Part shown: positions 2,740 to 36,057 of the stretch, in pieces | Layout of the letters: each line of letters starts with the position of its first letter | Position numbering within the stretch: the first letter of the stretch is position 1 | Assembly (NCBI GenBank): GCA_021163445.1 | Contig: JAGGWR010000070.1 | Span: 1-38,684 of the forward strand | Direction of reading: 5' to 3' | Length of the DNA stretch: 38,684 bases | Source of the DNA: Candidatus Tharpella aukensis | GTDB lineage: Bacteria; Desulfobacterota; Anaeroferrophillalia; Anaeroferrophillales; Tharpellaceae | Translations under genes and position numbers: made by a program | The notes under the pieces: generated by a model | Seen by the model: only the letters and a program-made list of their open reading frames with translations | Database searches by the model: none | Told to the model about the DNA's origin: nothing

Positions 2740-5700
2740 ATACACCGAAGTCGAGCAGCCGTTTCTTGAGCAGCTTAAAACCCTGGGCTGGACAGCTATT
2801 GATCAGGGGGCTGAGATTCCTCATGATCCGAGCAAGAGCCTGCGTCAAAACTTTCGTCAGTGGCTCCTGCCCGAGGTCTTTGTCGAAGCCGTGGCTGCAA
2901 TTAATACCACGGCGGCGGGTGAAAAATGGTTGACCGAAAAACAACTGCATGACCTCCACGACCTAATTTTACGCCAACCCAACCGCACCCTGCTGGAGGC
3001 TAACGAGGCTTTTCAAAAGCTGTTGTTTAAAGCTCAGGTGGATGTTAACGAGATTTCCGGTGAGCAAGACCCGGTGGTCAAAATTATTGATTTCACCAAT
3101 CCCGAAAACAACCAATTTCACGCTATTAACCAGTTTCGTATTGGTACACCGGGTTGCGTTAAGCAGTTTATCATTCCCGATATTGTCCTTTTTGTCAACG
3201 GCATTCCTCTGGCCGTGGTCGAGTGTAAAAAGGGTGGGCCGACCTGCGTCAATCCTATGAATGAAGCCTTTGAGCAACTGCAGCGTTATATGAATAAACG
3301 TAAGGATACTTTACAGCAAGGCTTGAAAGAGGGTGAACAGCGCTTATTTCATACTTCGTTGTTGTTGATTCGTACCTGTGGTCTCAAAGCCGATTTTGGC
3401 ACGATTACTTCCGGTATCGAGCACTTCTTTTCCTGGAAAACCCAGTGGCCGAATGAAGAATCCACGGCTGACGGCATGAATCAGCAAGAGCAACTTATTG
3501 CCGGTATGTTGAACCGACACAACTTGCTGAAAATTCTCCGGACGGCATCGGTATTTATGGATACCGACGGCGGCCAGCGAATTAAAGTGGTTTGTCGTTA
3601 TCAGCAATTTCGAGCGGCGGGCAAAATATGTGAACGGTTGCGGGGTGGTGGGACTTCGGCTCAAAAGAGTGGCGTGGTCTGGCATACCCAGGGATCGGGA
3701 AAATCGCTGACTATGGTTTTTGTCGCGCGGATGATGCGAACCTCGAAAGAATTGAACGATTTTAAGATAGTTTTGGTCAATGACCGGATTGATCTGGAAG
3801 ACCAACTCAGTAAAACCGCGACCCTGATCGGCGGTCGGGTCAATATCATCGAAAACAGCAAAGACCTGCGGCGGCAATTAGCACCCGACAGCTCTGATAT
3901 TAATATGGTGATGATCCATAAGTTTCAGCAGCGCGAGACTAGTTTAAGTCTGAAAGTTGCCGAAGCTTTAGGCACCTATCTGGCGATGCCGGCGGGTAAG
4001 GCTTTTGGCATCGTCAATGATTCAGAGCGTATTATTTTAATGATTGATGAAGCTCACCGGACTCAAGGGTCAGACCTTGGTGATAATATCTTTGAAGCAT
4101 TTCCCAATGCGGTGAGGATCGCTTTTACCGGAACGCCCTTGATTACCGAACGCCACGGCGAAAAGAAAACTCATAAACGTTTTGGTCAATATATTGATAC
4201 CTACCGCCTAATGGATGCGGTAGCCGACGGTGCGACGTTACAGATTCTTTATGAAGGAAAAACCGCCGATGCCGCCCTTAATGATAAGCACGGTTTTGAA
4301 ACCTCTTTTGAGGATCTGTTTAAGGACCGCAGTGAAGAAGAGTTGCTGGCTATAAAGAAAAAATATGGTGCCACCGGTGATATTCTGGAAGCAGAGAAGC
4401 GGATTGTGGCGATTGCCGAGGATCTGGTGGATCACTACATTAGCCATATTTTGCCTAACGGTTTTAAGGCCCAGGTGGTTTGCCATTCCAAATTAGCGGC
4501 CTGGCGCTATCAAAAAGCGATTCAAGAGGCTTTGCAGAAACAGTTGGCATTGGCTAAGGCTAAAGCGCTTCCTGATTTAGAGCTGATCAAAAAAATTGCC
4601 TTTTTGAAAGCCGTGGTTGTGGTTTCGGGTGATGGCACCAATGAGGCGGCCTATCTTACTAAAACGCGGAGAGAGGCCAAGGAGTGGAATGCGGTTGATA
4701 ATTTTTGCCGACCATTTGATCTGAACGATCCAGATAAGGAATACACCGGTATCGCCTTTTTAATCGTTTGCGATATGCTGCTTACCGGTTTTGATGCGCC
4801 GATTGAGCAGGTCATGTATATCGATAAAAAAATTCGGGAGCATACCCTGCTCCAGGCGATAGCTCGCACCAATCGGGTCAAAGCCGGTAAAAAACGGGGC
4901 TATGTGGTGGACTATATCGGTCTGGCCAACCATCTTACCGAAGCTCTGACGCTTTATGCGGCCAGCGATGAGCAGGAAGAACTGGCCCAAGGGCTGAAAA
5001 GTATTACTTCTGAAATGCCGGTTTTGGAAGAGCGTTACCAGCGTCTGTTGCAACTGTTTTCTGAGAATTCTGTGAAAAAAGTCAGGTTGGTGGCGGATTT
5101 TGTTCAGGGTGAATTGCCGGATGTAGAGGCTGATGCCGCCGTTGTCCATGAAGCTGTCTGTTTGTTAAAAGATGAAAAAATCAGGGCCGACTTTGATGTC
5201 TACTTGAAAAAGTTTTTGCTGAGTATGGATATTATTCTGCCCCACCAGGCTGCACATCCTTACCGGGTACCGGCAAAACGATTTGGTTATATTTTACGAG
5301 TCGCCAAAGAGCGTTATAAAGATAGCAGTTTGGATTTAGGCGATGCCGGTCAAAAGGTAAAAGAGCTGATTAACGCTCATTTGATTAGTTTAGGCATCAA
5401 TCCCATGGTGCCGCCTGTGGAGCTTTTGGCCGATGATTTTATCGAACATCTGCATCAGCACGCAGCCGGTAACCTTGAGGCCAAAGCCAGTGAAATGGAA
5501 CATGCCATCCGTAAACACTGCACGGTGCATCATGATGAAGATCCGGCTTTTTATAAGAGTTTATCTGAAAAGGTAGAGAATTTGATCGACAAGTATCAGG
5601 ATCAATGGGATCTGCTGGCCGATGAATTGGAAAAACTCCGAACTGAGGCGCTAGCGGGCCGCAGGGCTGGCGAAGATGGGATGAGTAAGGAAGCCACCAC

Positions 5701-15797: not shown

Positions 15798-18029
15798 ATG
15801 TCTCAGGAAACAATTGTCCAATTATTAAACGATCTGGCTGCTGATGTGGTTATGCTCGAGCCTGGAGACCTCTCTAGTCTGGGGCCGTTGCTTAAGACTG
15901 TTGAGGAATTAGAGAAACCTGATGTCAGCGCTGGATTTGAATTCCTGTTGCCTCGAGCTGAACAGTTTCGGGATGCCATTGTTACGATCATATTTGAAGA
16001 GTTTAAAGAACCGGAAAAATCGATCGAACTGCTTTCAACGTCAATTTCCAAGATGCAGGAGGCTCTGCGTAATGGTGCCGACAGTTGTGATAGTGTCGTT
16101 TCAGTGGCGGTTGAAAAGCCTGAAGAGTCAGTGGCGGCTGTTGATGTGGAACCGGAATCCGGTGATGCGGAACATTCATCGGATCTGGATGAAGAACTTT
16201 TTATTGGAGTCGATTTTAGTCAAGATCATGATCTTTATCAGGGTTTTATTGCTGAATCCAACGAACATCTCGATACGATAGAAGAGAATATTCTTAATCT
16301 GGAGCAGGATCCCGAGAACCTTGAGATCTTGAATTCTATTTTTCGCCCTTTTCACACAGTTAAAGGGGTCTCTGGATTTATGAATCTTTCACAGATGAAT
16401 GTTATTGCTCATCATCTGGAAAACCTGCTTGATGATGCCCGTAATCAGAAGTTTTATCTCGATGGTGATGCTACCGACTTGATTCTTGATGGGGTTGATT
16501 TCCTGAAAAAGATGCTTGGGCAACTTAACCTTGCTCTTGACGGGGGTGAACTTGAGAGGATGTCGGTTAAACCTTTCATTAAGCGTGTCGATGCTCTCCA
16601 TCAAGTGCTTTTGGGAGGTGACGCAGCTACTCCTGATGCTGAAAATGAGTCACCAGCACCAAAAATTGGCGAAATTCTGGTTGAAGAAGGGGTTATAAGT
16701 TCTGATGATCTTGAAGGAGCACTGGCTGAACAGCGGGTCGCTGCCGCTGCTGAACCGGAGAAAGCCCCGAAAAAGATCGGCAAAATTTTAGTTGACCAAA
16801 AAAAGACCAATGTTAAAACCGTAGCCCGGGCTATCCGCCAACAAAAACAGAGAAAAGATGTTGCCGGTGCCGGCAGTGGCGTTTCTTCAATCAAAGTGGA
16901 TATGGAGAAACTCGACAATCTGGTTGATATGGTGGGAGAGTTGGTTATTGTTCAAGCGATGATTCATCAGGATCCTGATATTGCCGGTTTAGTAACCCGG
17001 AAGGTGACCGAGAATATGGCTCAGTTGTCCCGGATTACGTCATCATTGCAAAAGGTTGCGATGTCGATGCGGATGGTGCCGATTAAGCAGACTTTTGGTA
17101 AAATGGTGCGTCTTGTACGTGATCTAGCCAAAAAAACCGAAAAAAAGATCGATCTAGTGATGTCTGGTGAGGAGACTGAAATTGATCGTAATATGGTTGA
17201 TTTGATCTATGATCCGATGGTGCATATGATCAGAAATTCGGCTGATCATGGTCTTGAAACCCCAGAGGATCGCCGCGCTTCGGGCAAGGATGAAACGGGA
17301 ACCATTACCCTTAAAGCCTATCATGGCGGAGGTAATGTGATTATTGAGATCGTTGATGACGGACGCGGTCTTAATCTCGAAAAGATCAGAGAGAAGGCGA
17401 TTGAGAAGGGGTTGCTCAGCGAAAATGATCAGCCAACCGATCAAGAGCTTTGCAATATGATTCTCGCGCCGGGGTTTTCGACAGCTGACAAAGTTACCGA
17501 TGTCTCGGGCCGCGGGGTCGGCATGGATGTCGTAAAAAAAGCGATTGAAAGACTGCGTGGAGTGATAGAGATTGATACAAACACGGGTCAAGGTTCGATC
17601 GTGACCATTAAGGTGCCGTTGACATTGGCGATTATTGACGGTATGGTGGTGATTGTTGGTCATGAGCGCTACATCGTTCCGACTCTCAATGTGGTTGAAT
17701 CATTGCGTCCCTTGAAAGAGCAGTACCATACGGTGCAGGGTCAGGGTGAGTTGATTAAAGTACGTGATCGCCTTTTGCCTCTGGTGCGTCTGCATCAGGT
17801 CTTCCATAGCGAAGCCCAGACGACCAATCCCTGGGAGGCTCTGGTGGTGGTAGTTGAGCACGAGGGAGAACAGTTTTGTCTGTTGGTTGACGAGCTGGTT
17901 GGTAAACAGGAGATTGTTATTAAAAGTCTCGGTGAACGACTCAAAGATCTGCCCGGAATTGCCGGAGGGGCAATTATGGGGGATGGCCGTGTTGGTTTGA
18001 TTTTGGATGTTGCCGGACTTTTTACTTAG
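15798..18029 (+). CDS. cheA: Chemotaxis histidine kinase CheA, with an atypical N-terminal extension and no obvious P2 domain
   Basis: HPt motif FRPFHTVKGVSGF (His186). Kinase motifs HMIRNSADHG, DDGRGL and GRGVGMD. C-terminal CheW-like domain. SD-like AAGAGG lies upstream of ATG 15798. Confidence 0.92.
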   Translation: MSQETIVQLLNDLAADVVMLEPGDLSSLGPLLKTVEELEKPDVSAGFEFLLPRAEQFRDAIVTIIFEEFKEPEKSIELLSTSISKMQEALRNGADSCDSVVSVAVEKPEESVAAVDVEPESGDAEHSSDLDEELFIGVDFSQDHDLYQGFIAESNEHLDTIEENILNLEQDPENLEILNSIFRPFHTVKGVSGFMNLSQMNVIAHHLENLLDDARNQKFYLDGDATDLILDGVDFLKKMLGQLNLALDGGELERMSVKPFIKRVDALHQVLLGGDAATPDAENESPAPKIGEILVEEGVISSDDLEGALAEQRVAAAAEPEKAPKKIGKILVDQKKTNVKTVARAIRQQKQRKDVAGAGSGVSSIKVDMEKLDNLVDMVGELVIVQAMIHQDPDIAGLVTRKVTENMAQLSRITSSLQKVAMSMRMVPIKQTFGKMVRLVRDLAKKTEKKIDLVMSGEETEIDRNMVDLIYDPMVHMIRNSADHGLETPEDRRASGKDETGTITLKAYHGGGNVIIEIVDDGRGLNLEKIREKAIEKGLLSENDQPTDQELCNMILAPGFSTADKVTDVSGRGVGMDVVKKAIERLRGVIEIDTNTGQGSIVTIKVPLTLAIIDGMVVIVGHERYIVPTLNVVESLRPLKEQYHTVQGQGELIKVRDRLLPLVRLHQVFHSEAQTTNPWEALVVVVEHEGEQFCLLVDELVGKQEIVIKSLGERLKDLPGIAGGAIMGDGRVGLILDVAGLFT

Positions 18030-18168
18030 CTGTTTCGTGACTTCTAAGTAACTACTTGCAACTAATTGATATTACATGAGTTTCACATTATACCTAAAAT
18101 AAGTATAGTATGCAGTGAAGTCCATTTGTTATTTACATAATATGTGGCCGTATAGCGGTCTGGAGTCG

Positions 18169-18189
18169 CTTTTTACGACGCCATCAAAC
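18169..18189 (+). repeat. Partial copy (3' terminus) of the 128-nt palindromic repeat family
   Basis: CTTTTTACGACGCCATCA (18169-18186) is identical to 21122-21139. The following AAAC and ATATCTTG also resemble the flank of the 34853-34980 copy read on the minus strand. Confidence 0.7.
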
Positions 18190-18233
18190 TTATATATCTT
18201 GGTTCCGGCTCTGTGCCGGGGTAGGTTTTTATT

Positions 18234-19601: not shown

Positions 19602-20083
19602 TGTCTTTGGTTACGATCGGAATTGCTGATCTTAAGGTCAGTAATAATCCCGAGGATACTCTGGTTACCTACTCTCTTGGTTCATGTATCGGTCTTGCCG
19701 TCTATGACCCGGTGGCCAAGGTTGGCGGACTCTTGCATTATATGTTGCCGGATTCATCAATAAATCAGGAAAAGGCGGCAAAGAATCCGGCGATGTTTGC
19801 CAATAAGGGCATACCTTTGCTGTTTAAACAGTGCTACAAGCTTGGAGCTGACAAAAAACGGATGATTATTAAGGTTGCTGGCGGCAGTCAGATTATGGAT
19901 GCTGCTGGTACCTTCAATATCGGTAAACGTAATTACGCAATTTTGCGTAAAATGTTTTGGAAGAATAATGTTATGATCGACGGTGAAGATATTGGCGGCA
20001 ACTGTAACAGAACCATGTATATGCAACTTGACGATGGCAAGATAAACCTGAAAATTTCCAAAAAAGGGATGGTCGAGTTATGA
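19601..20083 (+). CDS. cheD: Chemoreceptor glutamine deamidase CheD
   Basis: LGSCIGLAVYDP motif. The ATG overlaps the cheR stop (TGATG). Confidence 0.88.
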   Translation: MSLVTIGIADLKVSNNPEDTLVTYSLGSCIGLAVYDPVAKVGGLLHYMLPDSSINQEKAAKNPAMFANKGIPLLFKQCYKLGADKKRMIIKVAGGSQIMDAAGTFNIGKRNYAILRKMFWKNNVMIDGEDIGGNCNRTMYMQLDDGKINLKISKKGMVEL

Positions 20084-20940
20084 ACTTGATGGAAGAGATC
20101 ATTGCCGCAGTCGATGAGATGCCGCCCTTTCCTCAGGTTGTGCATCGGGCCATGCAGGTGATAGCGATACCGGAATACGAAGTTTCGAATCTGGTGGAGA
20201 TCTTGAAGGTTGATCAGGCGGTTACTGCAAATATTCTTAAACTTTGCAACTCTGCCTACTTTGGCTTGCCGCGTAAGGTCTCTTCTTTGAAAGAGGCGGT
20301 TGTTTATCTTGGTTCTGACCAGTTGAAACAGCTTCTACTTTCGGGGGCGGCCAGTAAAATTTATGAAAAACCGAGTGAAGGGTATGCCGTTTTTGCAGAT
20401 GAGCTTTGGCGTCATGCTCTGGCTACAGCCGTGATGTCCCAAGTTTTGCGCCGTCATTTGCGACTCAAGATTGATGAAAATATGGTTTTTACCGCAGCCC
20501 TGCTGCACGATGTCGGCAAGGTTGTTTTAAGTTCTTTTGTCTCTGACAGATATATTGCTATAGAGAGCATGGTGGAGAGTGGTGACTACTCTTTTCAGGA
20601 AGCTGAAAAAGATGTCTTAGGTTTTGATCATGCTGAAATTGGTGGTAAAATAGCGGAATCATGGGATTTTCCTCCGTCAATTGTTGCGGCTATCACTTTT
20701 CACCATGAGCCTGCTCGTTCTCCGAAAGAGTTTCGCCTGTTGACCGAGTTGGTGGCTTTAGCCAACAATCTTGCGGTGATGGTTGGTTATGGTACCGGGG
20801 TTGATGGTTTGGCCTGCCGAGGGCATGGTTTGCTTTTGCAGAAGTTAAAGCTTGAGGAGAAGGATGTTGAGGAGTTGATTCTTCTTTTCCAGATGGAAAT
20901 GGAAAAAACGTGTGATATTGCCGGTGTAAGTGAACGTTGA
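20080..20940 (+). CDS. HDOD domain-containing signalling protein
   Basis: The N-terminal motif (MPPFPQVVHRAMQV) and LLHDVGKVVL and GFDHAEIGGKIAESWDFP are typical of HDOD. The ATG overlaps the cheD stop (ATGA). Confidence 0.85.
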   Translation: MNLMEEIIAAVDEMPPFPQVVHRAMQVIAIPEYEVSNLVEILKVDQAVTANILKLCNSAYFGLPRKVSSLKEAVVYLGSDQLKQLLLSGAASKIYEKPSEGYAVFADELWRHALATAVMSQVLRRHLRLKIDENMVFTAALLHDVGKVVLSSFVSDRYIAIESMVESGDYSFQEAEKDVLGFDHAEIGGKIAESWDFPPSIVAAITFHHEPARSPKEFRLLTELVALANNLAVMVGYGTGVDGLACRGHGLLLQKLKLEEKDVEELILLFQMEMEKTCDIAGVSER

Positions 20941-21010
20941 TGGTTGTTACCCTGTTGTGATCCCGGTTTTTTGCCGGTTTAGGAGTTTACGAACTCATGA
21001 AAAGTAATGG

Positions 21011-21138
21011 GATGGCTAAGTAAAAATTTCGATAGACAAGATGATGGGGTTTTCCAGGCGCGAGACCATACAAATAGTATGTCGAGTGTCTGGGAAACCA
21101 CATCATCGCAGGATATCGGAACTTTTTACGACGCCATC
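21011..21138 (+). repeat. 128-nt rod-like palindromic repeat element, copy A
   Basis: It is 119/128 identical to the reverse complement of 34853-34980. Self-complementary segments: GATGGC (21011-16) / GCCATC (21133-38); GTAAAAA (21020-26) / TTTTTAC (21123-29); TTTCGATA (21027-34) / TATCGGAA (21114-21); and a 19-position stem (21040-58 / 21089-107). The apical region is 30 nt. Confidence 0.9.
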
Positions 21139-21150
21139 AGGAGTAAATTT

Positions 21151-21579
21151 ATGGCATATAATATTTTAGTGGTTGATGATTCGCTGTCAATGCGGGCAAT
21201 TATCAAAAAGGTCATTGCCATGTCTGGTTTTGATGTCGGAGAGATAGCTGAAGCTGGAAATGGTTTGGAGGCTCTGGCTAAACTTGAAGATTTCTGGGCC
21301 GATGTGGTTTTGTCTGATATTCATATGCCGGAAATGGACGGAATTGAGTTATTAAAAAAAATTAAATCTGATCCGTTGATGGCCTCAATGCCGGTGGTTA
21401 TGATCACGACCGAATCCCGGGATGAGGTTGTCTCCGGTGCCCTGGCAATGGGTGCGGCCGGTTATATCAAGAAGCCTTTTCGGCCGGAAGATATTAAAGC
21501 TTTGCTGGTCGAGATTTTAGGAGGAGAAGATGATGCTGTTGGAGAAGATCAGTCAGAATCTGACGACTGTGATTTCTGA
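21151..21579 (+). CDS. cheY: CheY-like response regulator (single REC domain) with an acidic C-terminal tail
   Basis: MAYNILVVDDSLSMRAI..., DIHMPEMDG, KKPF. SD AGGAG at 21139-21143 lies 7 nt upstream of ATG 21151. The tail is GGEDDAVGEDQSESDDCDF. Confidence 0.9.
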   Translation: MAYNILVVDDSLSMRAIIKKVIAMSGFDVGEIAEAGNGLEALAKLEDFWADVVLSDIHMPEMDGIELLKKIKSDPLMASMPVVMITTESRDEVVSGALAMGAAGYIKKPFRPEDIKALLVEILGGEDDAVGEDQSESDDCDF

Positions 21580-23026: not shown

Positions 23027-23054
23027 TAAATATGGCCAGGTAAAAAAATCGATT

Positions 23055-24263
23055 TTATAACTTTTTTATGGAAGATATATTAGTTATTGGGGCCTGTTTG
23101 AGGGCCCCTTTTTTTTCTTTTTTAATTTTATATAGATCTTCATCGGCGGCTTTTTTCAGGGCTTCGGCAGTGGTTGCAGTTGAGTCGGGATAGGTGGTGA
23201 GCCCGGCGCTCATTTTAATTGGAATCCAGGTGTTTTGGTCGACTTGAATTTTGCATTCAGAAGCTATTTTGAGAAGTTTTTCAATTACGTTCAGCCCCTG
23301 TTGATGGTTGGTGTTGGGTAAAATGATTGTAAACTCATCGCCTCCGTAGCGTAATCCAATATCGTGCTGGCGGAGATTGTTATTGATCAGGACACCGGTT
23401 TCCGCCAGTACCATATCACCTGCCGGATGACCATAGCGGTCATTGACGAGTTTAAAATCATCAAGATCGATCATTATCAGGCTTAAAGGGAGGTCGTAGC
23501 GTTTGGCTCTGGAAAACTCTTTGGGTAGAACTTCATCAAGGATGCGGCGGTTGTAGAGTCCGGTCAATGGATCTGTACGCAGGAGTCTTTGGAGTTGGGC
23601 AGTTAAGAGGTTGTTTTCGATGACGGTGGCCAATTTTCGGCCCAGGCTTTCAACTGCATCAGTAGCTGTTCCGGGGATAAATTTTTCAGGATCTGAACTT
23701 GCCAGATTAAGTGTGCCGATGGCCTGCCCACGACTGATAAGTGGGATAAAAGCGGATGATGCGATACTGTTGATAGTATTTTCCAAGGGGTTAAGCAGGG
23801 AGAGAAGAGCCGTATCAGGATTAATGCTTATCAGAGGGCGATCCTGTGGGAATAGCCGTTTATAGTCAGATTCGCTGATAAATGATATAGCAACCGTCTG
23901 GCAATCTTTCCAGTTGCTATCGGCAGACTCAATTATCTCTCTAAATTCAAGTTCGACGGGCTTATTTATTCTATCAATAAGAGAAATGTTGGCTAGAGGT
24001 ATGGTGAAATCAGAGGCAAGTTTGCTTTGTAACTCGTTGATTACGCAATCAAGATCGTCGGCCTTAAGAATGCTCTCTTCAAGATATTCAAAACATCGAT
24101 GCTGTTTTTCTCGTTCTTTAGCTAACTCTTCAAAATTTGAGAGGGTTCGATCAAGTTCATAATTACGGTCACGAAGCTCCTGGTTCTCTTTGAAAATTTT
24201 GTCAAAGATGGCTTGTTTGGCGTCGATTATCGTACTTTTAGGGGAGGTCTCGTCGCTACTCAT
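23055..24263 (-). CDS. Diguanylate cyclase (GGDEF) with an N-terminal coiled-coil/GAF-like sensor region
   Basis: Active-site RYGGDEFTI, with an RxxD I-site (RQHD) 5 residues upstream. The ATG overlaps the stop of the upstream EndoIII-like gene. Confidence 0.88.
   Translation of the reverse strand: MSSDETSPKSTIIDAKQAIFDKIFKENQELRDRNYELDRTLSNFEELAKEREKQHRCFEYLEESILKADDLDCVINELQSKLASDFTIPLANISLIDRINKPVELEFREIIESADSNWKDCQTVAISFISESDYKRLFPQDRPLISINPDTALLSLLNPLENTINSIASSAFIPLISRGQAIGTLNLASSDPEKFIPGTATDAVESLGRKLATVIENNLLTAQLQRLLRTDPLTGLYNRRILDEVLPKEFSRAKRYDLPLSLIMIDLDDFKLVNDRYGHPAGDMVLAETGVLINNNLRQHDIGLRYGGDEFTIILPNTNHQQGLNVIEKLLKIASECKIQVDQNTWIPIKMSAGLTTYPDSTATTAEALKKAADEDLYKIKKEKKGALKQAPITNISSIKKL
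23089..23116 (+). terminator. Rho-independent terminator of the che operon
   Basis: GGGGCC (23089-94), an 8-nt loop, then GGCCCC (23103-08), followed by T8 (23109-16) and more T. It lies 63 nt after the cheB stop. Confidence 0.7.
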
Positions 24264-33871: not shown

Positions 33872-34750
33872 TTAGCCAGCAAAAATATCTAAGGCGGAAA
33901 CTACAAAAATAGTGATGCTGATATAACCGTTAACTGTGAAAAAGGCAGTGTCGATTTTTGTCAGATCAGTCGGACTTAAGAGTTCATGTTCATAATGCAG
34001 CATTGTGGCAACCGCCAAAAGAGCTAAAAGAAAGAGCCAACCCAGCGAGGGGGTGATCAGGTAGATAAAAAAGAGGGCGCCGAGCATGCCTAAGTGGAGT
34101 TTGCGGGCCAGAGTTAAAGTCTGTTCAATGCCGATGGTTGCAGGAATTGAGTGGAGTCCCTCTCCCAGGTCAAATTCGATATCTTGCAGGGAGTAGAGCA
34201 GGTCGAAACCACTGACCCAGCAGCCGACGGCAAAGCCTAATACCAGCGGGGTCAGGGCGAGTGAGCCGGTAACTGCAATCCAGGCTCCGATCGGAGCCAG
34301 TCCGAGGCAGAAACCGAGAACATAGTGGGTGTAGATGGTATAGCGTTTGGCCACCGAGTAGGCAGTTAACATCATAATAATGTAGGGGGCCAGGAGCAGG
34401 CAGAAAGAGTTGAGCATGGCCGCCGCAAAAATAAAGATCAAATAACTTAAGCAGGTCAGTAGAAGCACCTGTTTGGCGTCAATTAATCCGGCAGGCAGGG
34501 CACGGTCTTTGGTGCGGGGGTTGCGGGCGTCGATCTCTGTATCAAGCAGGCGGTTGGCCCCCATGGCTCCGGTGCGGGCTCCGGCCATAGCAATAATGAT
34601 CCATAATACTTTCCAGATCGAGGGCAGTCCGTCGGCGGCCAGCAATGCTGCCATCAGGGCGAAAGGCAAGGCAAAAATAGTATGAGAAAACTTGACCATT
34701 TCAAGAAAAGTGCGTATCCGTGGTTGAGGGGTGGTAAGTTCCATTTCCAT
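33872..34750 (-). CDS. UbiA-family aromatic polyprenyltransferase (4-hydroxybenzoate polyprenyltransferase-like)
   Basis: Polytopic membrane protein with the Asp-rich motif NRLLDTEIDARNPRTKDR. A second acidic motif lies in YSLQDIEFD. Confidence 0.8.
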   Translation of the reverse strand: MEMELTTPQPRIRTFLEMVKFSHTIFALPFALMAALLAADGLPSIWKVLWIIIAMAGARTGAMGANRLLDTEIDARNPRTKDRALPAGLIDAKQVLLLTCLSYLIFIFAAAMLNSFCLLLAPYIIMMLTAYSVAKRYTIYTHYVLGFCLGLAPIGAWIAVTGSLALTPLVLGFAVGCWVSGFDLLYSLQDIEFDLGEGLHSIPATIGIEQTLTLARKLHLGMLGALFFIYLITPSLGWLFLLALLAVATMLHYEHELLSPTDLTKIDTAFFTVNGYISITIFVVSALDIFAG

Positions 34751-34852
34751 GTTAAATACCTCTTTTAATGTAAGTTGGGGAAAATGGTTCAGGTTTGTTT
34801 TTTTCCGGGCACCCCCATTACTCTATTTAGTTTGATGATGCAAGATATGTTT

Positions 34853-34980
34853 GATGGCGTTGTAAAAAGTTCCGATATCCTGCGTTGTTGTGTTTTTCCA
34901 GACACTCGACATACTATTTGTATGGTCTCGCGCCTGGAAAACCACAACTACTTGTCTATCGAAATTTTTACTTAGCCATC
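34853..34980 (-). repeat. 128-nt rod-like palindromic repeat element, copy B (the minus strand has the orientation of copy A)
   Basis: Its reverse complement aligns base-for-base, without gaps, with 21011-21138, with 9 mismatches. It lies in the 299-nt divergent spacer between the ubiA-like gene and pdxA. Confidence 0.9.
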
Positions 34981-35049
34981 CCGTATTTTTTACGTCTCGA
35001 AGGAAGTGTACTTGGGGTGTGAGTTTATTATGCTTATGGGAGAATAAAT

Positions 35050-36057
35050 ATGGTTAGATTGGCGGTTTCGATGGGGGATCCGGCGGGTGTCGGTCCAGAA
35101 GTGACAGTGCGCTCTCTTGTGCAGATGGATGAGGGCTTGCGTAGAGAGGTCGTGGTGGTCGGTGAGGCGGCTTGGTTGCGGCGGGTTGCAAAAGCGATTG
35201 GCGGGGTGGCAAGATCACTGGTTTTTGTCGAAAGAGGTGCGGCGGTCGGGGTTGATGATTGGCCGTCAGAGATTGCTGCGAGGGCGATCCGGGTTTGCAA
35301 TCCTCTTGCCGAAGCTCTGCCGCAACTGGTTTTGGGGCGTGATTATGCGGTTTTCGGTGATGCCTCATTTAATTATGTCAAGTGTGGAGTCGAGTTGGTG
35401 CAAAAAGGGATTTGTCAGGCTCTGGTGACCGCACCGATCTCTAAGCATGCCTGGCATCTGGCAGGCCATCAATATCCCGGCCATACTGAATTTTTGCGCG
35501 AATTGAGCGGGAGTTCGAAGGTCGGTATGGTATTTTGGGGTGAACGTTTGAAGGTTCTGTTGGCGACGACTCACCTATCTCTGGCCCGGGTGCCGGAGGT
35601 TTTGACAATTGATCTTGTCCTGGAACAGATTTTAATGTTGCATGACTTTATGCAGAAGATTAATCTGTCTGGAACTATCGGTTTAGCCGCCCTGAATCCT
35701 CATGCCGGCGAAGGGGGAGCCTTTGGCGATGAAGAGGAGCGCATTTTGCGGCCTGCTCTGACCCGTTTACATAAGCTTGGTGTCGCGGTTGAGGGGCCTG
35801 TACCTGCTGATGTGCTTTTTCATCAGGCTCTTAACGGTCGGTATGCGGCCCTGGTCGCACTCTATCATGATCAAGGCCTGGTGCCTTTTAAAATGCTCTA
35901 TTTTGATGATGGTGTCAATCTTTCTATAGGCCTCCCTTTTATCAGAACTTCCGCTGATCATGGTACGGCGTTTGATATTTCTGATAAATTTGTTGCCAGC
36001 AGCCGAAGTATGGATGCAGCACTCGCACTTGCCGTTAGGTTGGCAAGTGTTTATTGA
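35050..36057 (+). CDS. pdxA: 4-hydroxythreonine-4-phosphate dehydrogenase
   Basis: MVRLAVSMGDPAGVGPEV at the N-terminus, plus LNPHAGEGG and TSADHGTAFD motifs. Confidence 0.9.
   Translation: MVRLAVSMGDPAGVGPEVTVRSLVQMDEGLRREVVVVGEAAWLRRVAKAIGGVARSLVFVERGAAVGVDDWPSEIAARAIRVCNPLAEALPQLVLGRDYAVFGDASFNYVKCGVELVQKGICQALVTAPISKHAWHLAGHQYPGHTEFLRELSGSSKVGMVFWGERLKVLLATTHLSLARVPEVLTIDLVLEQILMLHDFMQKINLSGTIGLAALNPHAGEGGAFGDEEERILRPALTRLHKLGVAVEGPVPADVLFHQALNGRYAALVALYHDQGLVPFKMLYFDDGVNLSIGLPFIRTSADHGTAFDISDKFVASSRSMDAALALAVRLASVY

Follow-up and report, generated by a model that had tools for sequence, protein, structure and literature searches.

The two long palindromes in the window, by which we mean the whole 38,684-nucleotide stretch of Candidatus Tharpella aukensis DNA under study (contig JAGGWR010000070.1, positions 1 to 38,684), are two independent insertions of one non-autonomous MITE, an element of about 152–177 bp that is widespread in Desulfobacterota; we give this reading a probability of roughly 0.88. 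A preliminary description of the window had taken a 128-nt palindrome as the unit. That unit proved too small, as the palindrome belongs to a larger transposable element that has an additional outer left end and is bordered by target duplications of 6–7 bp. Our analysis revealed terminal inverted repeats, a duplicated target, small non-coding size, dispersed copies and an empty site, which together identify the element as a MITE. The kind of element is familiar and the family new; what makes it notable is mainly a hairpin that is kept paired across many species.

Species-representative genomes were scanned using only the feet of the hairpin, TGGCNNNGTAAAAA...TTTTTACNNNGCCA, and at least 116 stretches were returned, nearly all of them in MAGs of Desulfobacterota. 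Among the matches listed, the hosts belong to Desulfobacterales, Desulfobulbales (Desulfocapsa, Desulfopila, Desulforhopalus), Desulfatibia, Desulfosalsimonas, Desulfosudaceae and Desulfoarculaceae, several genomes carry three to seven loci each, and a few matches are from Desulfuromonadota. Typical copies were also observed on short contigs of MAGs labelled candidate division WOR-3 (L037) and Porticoccaceae (L116), for which mis-binning is more likely than a true host range. A few complete or near-complete copies, or sibling elements of the kind described below, occur on IMG/VR contigs classed as viral (L128, L136, L138 and L139); these could be prophage regions or mis-binned host DNA. The copies include head-to-head and tandem pairs (L105, L053), as well as insertions beside lone ends (L041, L012).

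When about 120 copies were oriented by their asymmetric loops, the left flank of the hairpin proved to be conserved. The element is built on an end motif of 17–19 bp, GATGGnnnCGTAAAAAG, which starts with GATGG and is present three times per element, as U, as L and, inverted, as R. U, (T)GATGnaCTCGTAAAAAGTC, is the outer left end and lies ~30 nt upstream of the hairpin; L, GATGGCTAAGTAAAAAG, is a second, direct copy of the motif at the start of the left arm of the hairpin; and R, the inverted copy with the 17-mer CTTTTTACGACGCCATC, ends the right arm. The order is U, a spacer of ~8–10 nt, L, the hairpin body and R, with a hairpin of ~125–128 nt. U (GATGnaCTCGTAAAAAGTC) and R (GACTTTTTACGAcGCCATC) constitute terminal inverted repeats of 19 bp that are conserved at both borders in ~100 copies, and the ends read GATG...CATC. 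With two copies of the motif at the left end, the hairpin stands off-centre in the element. The element has no coding capacity of its own, and stop codons, TGA and TAA, occupy two reading frames out of three at each of its ends. When the full-length strand is folded, 46 of 51 copies pair R with L; pairing of U with R instead of L with R was considered and rejected, being the minimum-energy fold in only 5 of the 51. The profile match to the element is clearly oriented, scoring 90 bits on one strand and 28 bits on its complement (89 against 27 for copy A).

Target-site duplications, which the preliminary description had suggested looking for, were found. Perfect direct repeats of 6 or 7 bp border 37 of the 51 copies in which U is intact and recognisable, 33 of them with a perfect 6-bp repeat and four with a perfect 7-bp repeat, and the consensus is AANNTT. 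The hexamers are true duplications rather than prolonged inverted repeats, since 29 of the 33 are non-palindromic. These duplications bear directly on another explanation, namely that the palindromes are repeats of the REP/REPIN type moved by a RAYT (IS200-like, single-strand-specific) transposase, which would explain a strand-specific hairpin. REPs are 20–40 nt long, REPIN doublets measure ~70–100 nt, no target duplications accompany them, and IS200/IS605-type transposition makes none. The present element shares with REPs and REPINs an imperfect palindrome that is dispersed between genes, a strand-asymmetric folding, and a pairing that is conserved while the sequence drifts. In addition, one end of a REP bears a GTAG or CGTC tag (PMC3733652), and the tetranucleotide CGTC is found inside the end motif, GATGGCGTCG. 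Nevertheless, the duplications seen in 37 of 51 copies largely refute this origin, and the 19-bp terminal inverted repeats, a unit of ~155 bp that is four to six times the length of a REP, and the lack of a recurrent gene beside the copies also speak against it; we regard it as very improbable.

The insertions favor short intergenic spaces and often lie on a stop codon or a ribosome-binding site. Among the matches listed, 99 of 117 copies are intergenic. Where a gene runs toward the R end, its stop codon is in 15 copies a TGA that is formed at the junction and overlaps this end, and in 12 further copies it is located 3–4 nt away, inside the duplicated target. Among 118 loci no recurrent neighbouring gene was found, the neighbours being unrelated housekeeping genes.

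Copy A spans 20987–21138 on the plus strand (~152 bp), as delimited by the family consensus with its flanks, the U motif, the flanking repeats, the fold and the profile match. Its degenerate U, TACGAACTCATGAAAAGTA, was located at 20988–21006 by motif comparison, and its hairpin occupies 21011–21138, with L at 21011–21027 and R at 21120–21138. The hexamer AGGAGT stands on the left (20981–20986) and again on the right (21139–21144) of the element, identical in 6 of 6 positions. Upstream of copy A lies an HDOD-domain gene (20080–20940, plus strand; Pfam HDOD, 5e-57), and directly downstream a CheY-like response regulator (21151–21579, plus strand, ATG at 21151; Pfam Response_reg, 2e-28), for which the right-hand AGGAGT is now the Shine-Dalgarno sequence. 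A metagenome scan with the HDOD protein upstream of copy A was used as a search for the empty site, whose existence the preliminary description had left to be checked. It was present on two contigs (L148 and L145) whose HDOD proteins are 79% and 84% identical to that of the window: there the HDOD–cheY spacer is ~50 nt long and contains no element, only a single (A/G)GGAGT, that is AGGAGT or GGGAGT, before the cheY ATG. The insertion of copy A has regenerated the Shine-Dalgarno sequence of cheY through target duplication.

Two further observations concern the copy A locus. The closest relative by HDOD protein (85% identity; L150, ~3400–3640) has downstream of this gene a spacer with a different repeat, and not cheY; in that repeat GTTGTAAGAACTTTGTAACTATTCAG occurs twice, inverted, around a segment of ~130 nt. 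In the window, an ATG at 21007 opens a frame of 48 codons that runs across 21007–21150, through all of copy A, and is in frame with the cheY-like gene. This is the only ORF across copy A, a chance in-frame extension of cheY from which a gene caller could report a false protein of 190 aa; translation of the CheY-like gene most likely begins at the ATG that follows the duplicated AGGAGT, at 21151.

Copy B lies on the minus strand and is 177 bp long (34853–35029), as established from the profile match, the fold, the alignment and the occurrence of the same split U at an unrelated locus (L111). The hairpin is found at 34853–34980, with R at 34853–34871, and U (~34981–35029) is split by a 24-nt insert, reading AATAAACTCA...CGTAAAAAATAC on the minus strand. 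The target-site duplication reads, on the plus strand, ATGTTT on the R side (34847–34852) and ATGCTT on the U side (35030–35035, 14 nt upstream of the pdxA ATG), with 5 of 6 positions matching. The split U at L111 raised the possibility of an orthologous insertion, which was rejected, as the flanks there encode an unrelated outer-membrane protein; the 50 nt in common therefore represent a variant form of the left end within the subfamily. The U of copy A and that of copy B are both degenerate, so that neither copy is likely to be mobile now, and the duplication at copy B is imperfect.

The genes on either side of copy B are divergent, with a UbiA-family prenyltransferase gene at 33872–34750 on the minus strand (Pfam UbiA, 6e-52) and pdxA at 35050–36057 on the plus strand (ATG at 35050; Pfam PdxA). 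The R end of copy B is located 102 nt from the ubiA ATG, just as previously described. On the other side, the 70 nt formerly given as the distance to the pdxA ATG must be corrected to 20 nt because the true border of the element is at 35029. Most of the divergent ubiA/pdxA control region is occupied by copy B, and the pdxA region of the window recurs nearly identical in two metagenome assemblies. Since only 20 nt remain between copy B and the pdxA ATG, the promoter of pdxA must be either within the element or on its far side; in the latter case, the mRNA would have a leader of ~200 nt that carries the hairpin in its weaker-folding sense.

The reverse complement of 34853–34980 was said to align with 21011–21138 without gaps and with 119 of 128 positions identical, and our re-alignment agrees. 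Repeat finding extends the similarity beyond these 128 nt, from 21000–21139 against 34852–34991. The view that the two copies do not belong to a larger duplication was borne out, as the flanks of A and B are unrelated. An alternative origin of the pair, as remnants of a segmental duplication or as integron attC-like recombination sites, can draw only on the shared 140 nt and the palindromic shape, and is opposed by these unrelated flanks, by a target duplication of its own at each copy, and by the at least 116 copies in other genomes. Furthermore, the sequence lacks GTTRRRY core sites (RYYYAAC...GTTRRRY), neither a cassette array nor an integrase is present nearby, and the copies are solitary between housekeeping genes. 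The family census refutes this origin, which we consider practically negligible beside two separate insertions of the MITE.

Both copies fold into one long hairpin, with −66.4 kcal/mol (z = −13.1) for copy A and −59.3 kcal/mol (z = −11.2) for copy B relative to dinucleotide shuffles, and for neither copy did any of 200 shuffles fold as well. In the ungapped alignment they differ at element positions 31, 32, 34, 37, 84, 88, 93, 96 and 120. Alignment and fold confirmed that eight of these nine differences fall in the arms of the stem 30–48/79–97 and none in the apex, and that the ninth (21130, G/A) lies inside the outer 3x3 loop TAA/GAC. Two pairs had been described as exchanged on both sides. 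It is correct that 31:96 and 34:93 are both A:T in copy A and T:A in copy B; a true double change, however, occurred at 34:93 only. Two changes that create or improve pairs were recovered at 37:90 (G.A in A, T:A in B) and 43:84 (U.G in A, U:A in B), and so were the two that break pairs, 32:95 and 39:88 being paired in A and broken in B. The ancestral state of each difference was inferred from the closest relatives of the two copies (L039, L068, L111, L097 and L014). With these relatives as the reference, the double change at 34:93 took place in the lineage of copy A, and 31:96 goes back to an A.A mismatch that copy A repaired on one side (A96 to T) and copy B on the other (A31 to T). Compared with the inferred ancestor, copy A acquired one pair-breaking change, T37 to G, and a change of A84 to G that turned a Watson-Crick pair into G.U, while copy B acquired two pair-breaking changes, T32 to A and C88 to A, and one change in a loop. 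Some of the states that distinguish A from B recur in other genomes (e.g., T96 in L087), and the difference must therefore be partly inherited from different source copies and not acquired in place.

The family is composed of three subfamilies, whose stems are entirely different while the architecture is the same. A single structure for the whole family was tried and discarded, as a MAFFT/RNAalifold alignment of all 110 copies puts the subfamily stems out of register and finds no more than 20 pairs; for this reason the subfamilies were analyzed separately. The proposal that pairing is maintained was upheld in the 42 copies of the window's subfamily, in which 96.7% of the pair cells are standard compared to 87.4% in shuffles. 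Of the 42 pairs, 20 have changed on both sides, with 146 such cells against 39 expected, although pair cells of related copies share ancestry and these counts are not independent events. None of 500 shuffles of this subfamily reached any of the pairing measures, and sliding the partners against each other lowered the pairing to 36–47%. Confinement of substitutions to the stem, which the comparison of A and B had suggested, does not extend to the family, as stem columns are 8–14% off consensus and unpaired columns 13–16%. Several features are common to all subfamilies. Two asymmetric internal loops, TAA/GAC (AAA/GAA in one subfamily) and CAAGGCG/CAACGCAG, are kept throughout and are present in nearly all 110 copies, and the apical RTAC...GTAY stem is conserved as well. 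In the window's subfamily, G.T persists at columns 20:112 in 32 of 42 copies and at columns 50:81 in 23 of 42.

Pairing could also be kept without selection, if the two arms were homogenized by repair or gene conversion on extrusion of a hairpin or cruciform, or by fold-back copying during transposition. The frequency of changes on both sides (146 cells, 20 pairs) would be expected from such a process, and the ancestral A.A mismatch at 31:96, resolved on opposite arms in copies A and B, fits it equally well. On the other hand, homogenization should erase both the asymmetric loops and the G.T positions. The two loops, TAA/GAC and CAAGGCG/CAACGCAG, have instead been kept across three subfamilies with different stems, and specific G.T positions are retained in most copies. 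Their persistence in more than 100 copies makes it distinctly unlikely that hairpin-templated homogenization, offered in the preliminary description as the alternative to selection, is by itself the source of the pairing. Under selection, the hairpin would stay paired as lineages that lose the pairing stop propagating. The most likely reason for such a dependence would be that some step requires the U-to-R strand to fold, be it as a transcript or as single-stranded DNA.

The two strands of the element do not fold equally well. The U-to-R strand is the more stable one in 107 of 110 copies, with mean values of −57.9 versus −48.0 kcal/mol. In the window's subfamily, 142 G:U cells were counted versus 5 A.C cells, a ratio that is inflated because the structure was derived from the same U-to-R strand. 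In a strand-neutral recount, with pairs predicted from both strands, G:U against A.C was 23:6 in the window's subfamily and 9:8 and 4:4 in the other two. The asymmetry consists mostly of purine-purine mismatches (907 versus 130 pyrimidine-pyrimidine). Since the purine-rich mismatches sit largely in conserved, inherited loops, the strand bias is weak evidence for a single-stranded form, and taken together the data weakly suggest that a folded form, as transcript or as single-stranded DNA, is needed during propagation.

It has also to be considered whether the hairpin is a cis-regulatory or structural RNA of the host, such as a terminator, an mRNA stabilizer, an RNase III site or a 5'-UTR switch, that is selected at each locus, with mobility being incidental or ancient. 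Strong covariation together with conserved purine-rich internal loops, the better folding of one strand in 107 of 110 copies, and the excess of G:U over A.C in the window's subfamily (142 versus 5) would all suit such a role. Moreover, many copies abut gene ends (15 TGA overlaps and 12 stops at 3–4 nt), and in the sequence A5 and T5 tracts bracket the stem, as they do in bidirectional terminators. However, a strand-neutral count leaves the G:U bias in only one of the three subfamilies, the gene contexts are unrelated, and close relatives that lack the element at the site of copy A still have the operon. Where copies are placed between co-directional genes, the better-folding strand runs with the genes in 19 of them and against the genes in 27 (117 copies listed); this absence of an orientation bias makes a cis-acting RNA role for the host at each locus unlikely. 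No promoter-like sites were found in copy A or copy B, and a scan for the terminator consensus returned none in either copy on either strand, the T5 run being inside the outer helix. Rfam 15 gave no match in the window at gathering thresholds, and only chance-level matches around copy A (E above 3). Selection as a host RNA is, in our estimate, quite improbable. A broader reading holds that the hairpin, instead of arising as a by-product when two transposon ends fused, is a functional single-stranded module, RNA or ssDNA of the U-to-R strand, which comprises the two conserved purine-rich internal loops and the RTAC...GTAY apex and is needed for propagation or was repeatedly kept by hosts in several orders of Desulfobacterota. 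This is still unlikely, though less so than a locus-by-locus host RNA. If it were true, a transposon with inverted ends and target duplications would depend on a strand-specific folded intermediate, a combination that to our knowledge has not been described for bacterial MITEs.

Concerning the movement of the MITE, we infer mobilization in trans, and likewise the type of enzyme. A transposase encoded elsewhere would bind the U, L and R motifs and move the element by staggered target cleavage. Each insertion duplicates 6, sometimes 7, bp of an AT-rich, AANNTT-like target. In a parent element, the ORF would lie between inverted GATGGnnnCGTAAAAAGTC ends with a duplication of 6–7 bp. No transposase and no longer autonomous element with these ends was found at the 118 loci (~0.8 Mb of flanks), where no ORF recurs among the flanks. 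The ORFs beside lone motifs were all housekeeping genes. A scan of viral contigs for the end motif gave mostly chance matches and a few MITEs, with no parent, and a BLAST search of plasmids returned no match. Motif pairs 0.7–3 kb apart were examined as candidate parents, and the one at L086 proved to consist of a full MITE that carries a nested insert and of a truncated copy in inverted orientation. The full copy (2016–2228) holds a 40-nt nested insert in its left arm, and the truncated one (3390–3471; U and L only) is inverted and 1.2 kb away; together they bracket two ordinary genes in a layout that resembles a composite transposon.

Sibling elements that have the same ends and a different interior were identified at L004, L032, L035, L062, L080, L094, L105 (191–325) and L128. 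Target-type flanks accompany those at L004, L032, L035, L062, L105 and L128, and L035 has a perfect 7-bp duplication, AGTTAGT. Some of these six contain inverted repeats of the type GTCATTCC(C/G)GCGAAGGC(G/C)GGAATCCAG. The same ends around several arrangements and interiors imply that a single end-recognizing activity moved several types of cargo, and several MITE families seem to use one transposase.

Traces of the family were also detected elsewhere in the window. A lone right-end remnant, GCTTTTTACGACGCCATC, with an AAACTT flank and without a hairpin body, lies on the plus strand at 18168–18191 in the cheA–cheW spacer. Its 17-mer (18169–18185) matches the R end of copy A in 17 of 17 positions, with 0.11 such matches expected by chance; the end at 18168–18185 has a profile match of E = 0.019 and was also found as an inverted repeat. 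AAACTT is of the usual target type. The cheA–cheW spacer shows no significant folding (z = −1.6). The stop codon of cheA stands inside GGACTTTTTACTTAG, which resembles the reverse complement of the L arm (18014–18060); a CTAAGTAAC motif follows 20 nt after it, and the perfect lone R end 140 nt downstream. This AT-rich spacer may be what is left of an older insertion, or of two. A weak profile match at 23032–23053 was rejected as a further copy (E = 0.27). At 23032–23080, between two convergent genes, ATGGCCAGGTAAAAAAATCGAT is followed 20 nt downstream by an inverted AACTTTTTTATGG; this weak match is probably due to chance.

The ends GATGGnnnCGTAAAAAG, the layout with three motifs and the 6–7 bp AANNTT duplication provide a precise recipe by which this repeat family, abundant in genomes and MAGs of sulfate reducers and their relatives within the Desulfobacterota, can be recognized. 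Such recognition matters for annotation, as repeats of this family break assemblies, create false ORF extensions like that at 21007–21150, and shift apparent gene ends and ribosome-binding sites. Because the element lands exactly on stop codons and Shine-Dalgarno sequences and carries stops of its own, it can remodel operon junctions; in the window, a chemotaxis operon and the ubiA/pdxA control region are affected. As its three subfamilies combine completely different stems with conserved loops, the family is also a large natural data set, with which it can be asked whether long MITE hairpins are kept by selection on RNA, by selection on single-stranded DNA, or by homogenization of the arms.

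In its end structure, with a motif that is doubled on the left and single on the right, and in a target duplication of ~5–7 bp, the element is comparable to IS21, Tn7, Mu and Tn552, transposons whose unequal ends bear several repeats for transposase binding. It differs from transposons of this type in having GATG...CATC instead of TG...CA at its ends, and in being known without a linked protein. Duplications of 6–7 bp are also made by the ISNCY/ISDol1 group, with a Desulfococcus host; the papers we found that name ISDol1 do not give its end sequences. Our literature search found no paper with the end sequence of the present element and no description of such an element in Desulfobacterota. In overall form, the closest likeness is to the hairpin MITEs ERIC/IRU (~127 bp) and YPAL of enterobacteria, Correia/NEMIS of Neisseria, RUP and BOX of pneumococcus, and Nezha of cyanobacteria, which likewise are non-coding, multi-copy, intergenic elements of ~100–200 bp. 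As in ERIC, Correia, RUP, YPAL and others, there are terminal inverted repeats and target duplications, and the whole element is an imperfect palindrome that gives a stable hairpin in a transcript; such elements also often lie beside stop codons or start sites in either orientation. In contrast to ERIC, Correia and their like, to which we saw no sequence resemblance, the present element has a doubled left-end motif and hosts in several orders of Desulfobacterota, and its target duplication is an AANNTT-like 6–7 bp, compared to the TA dinucleotide that ERIC and Correia are reported to duplicate.
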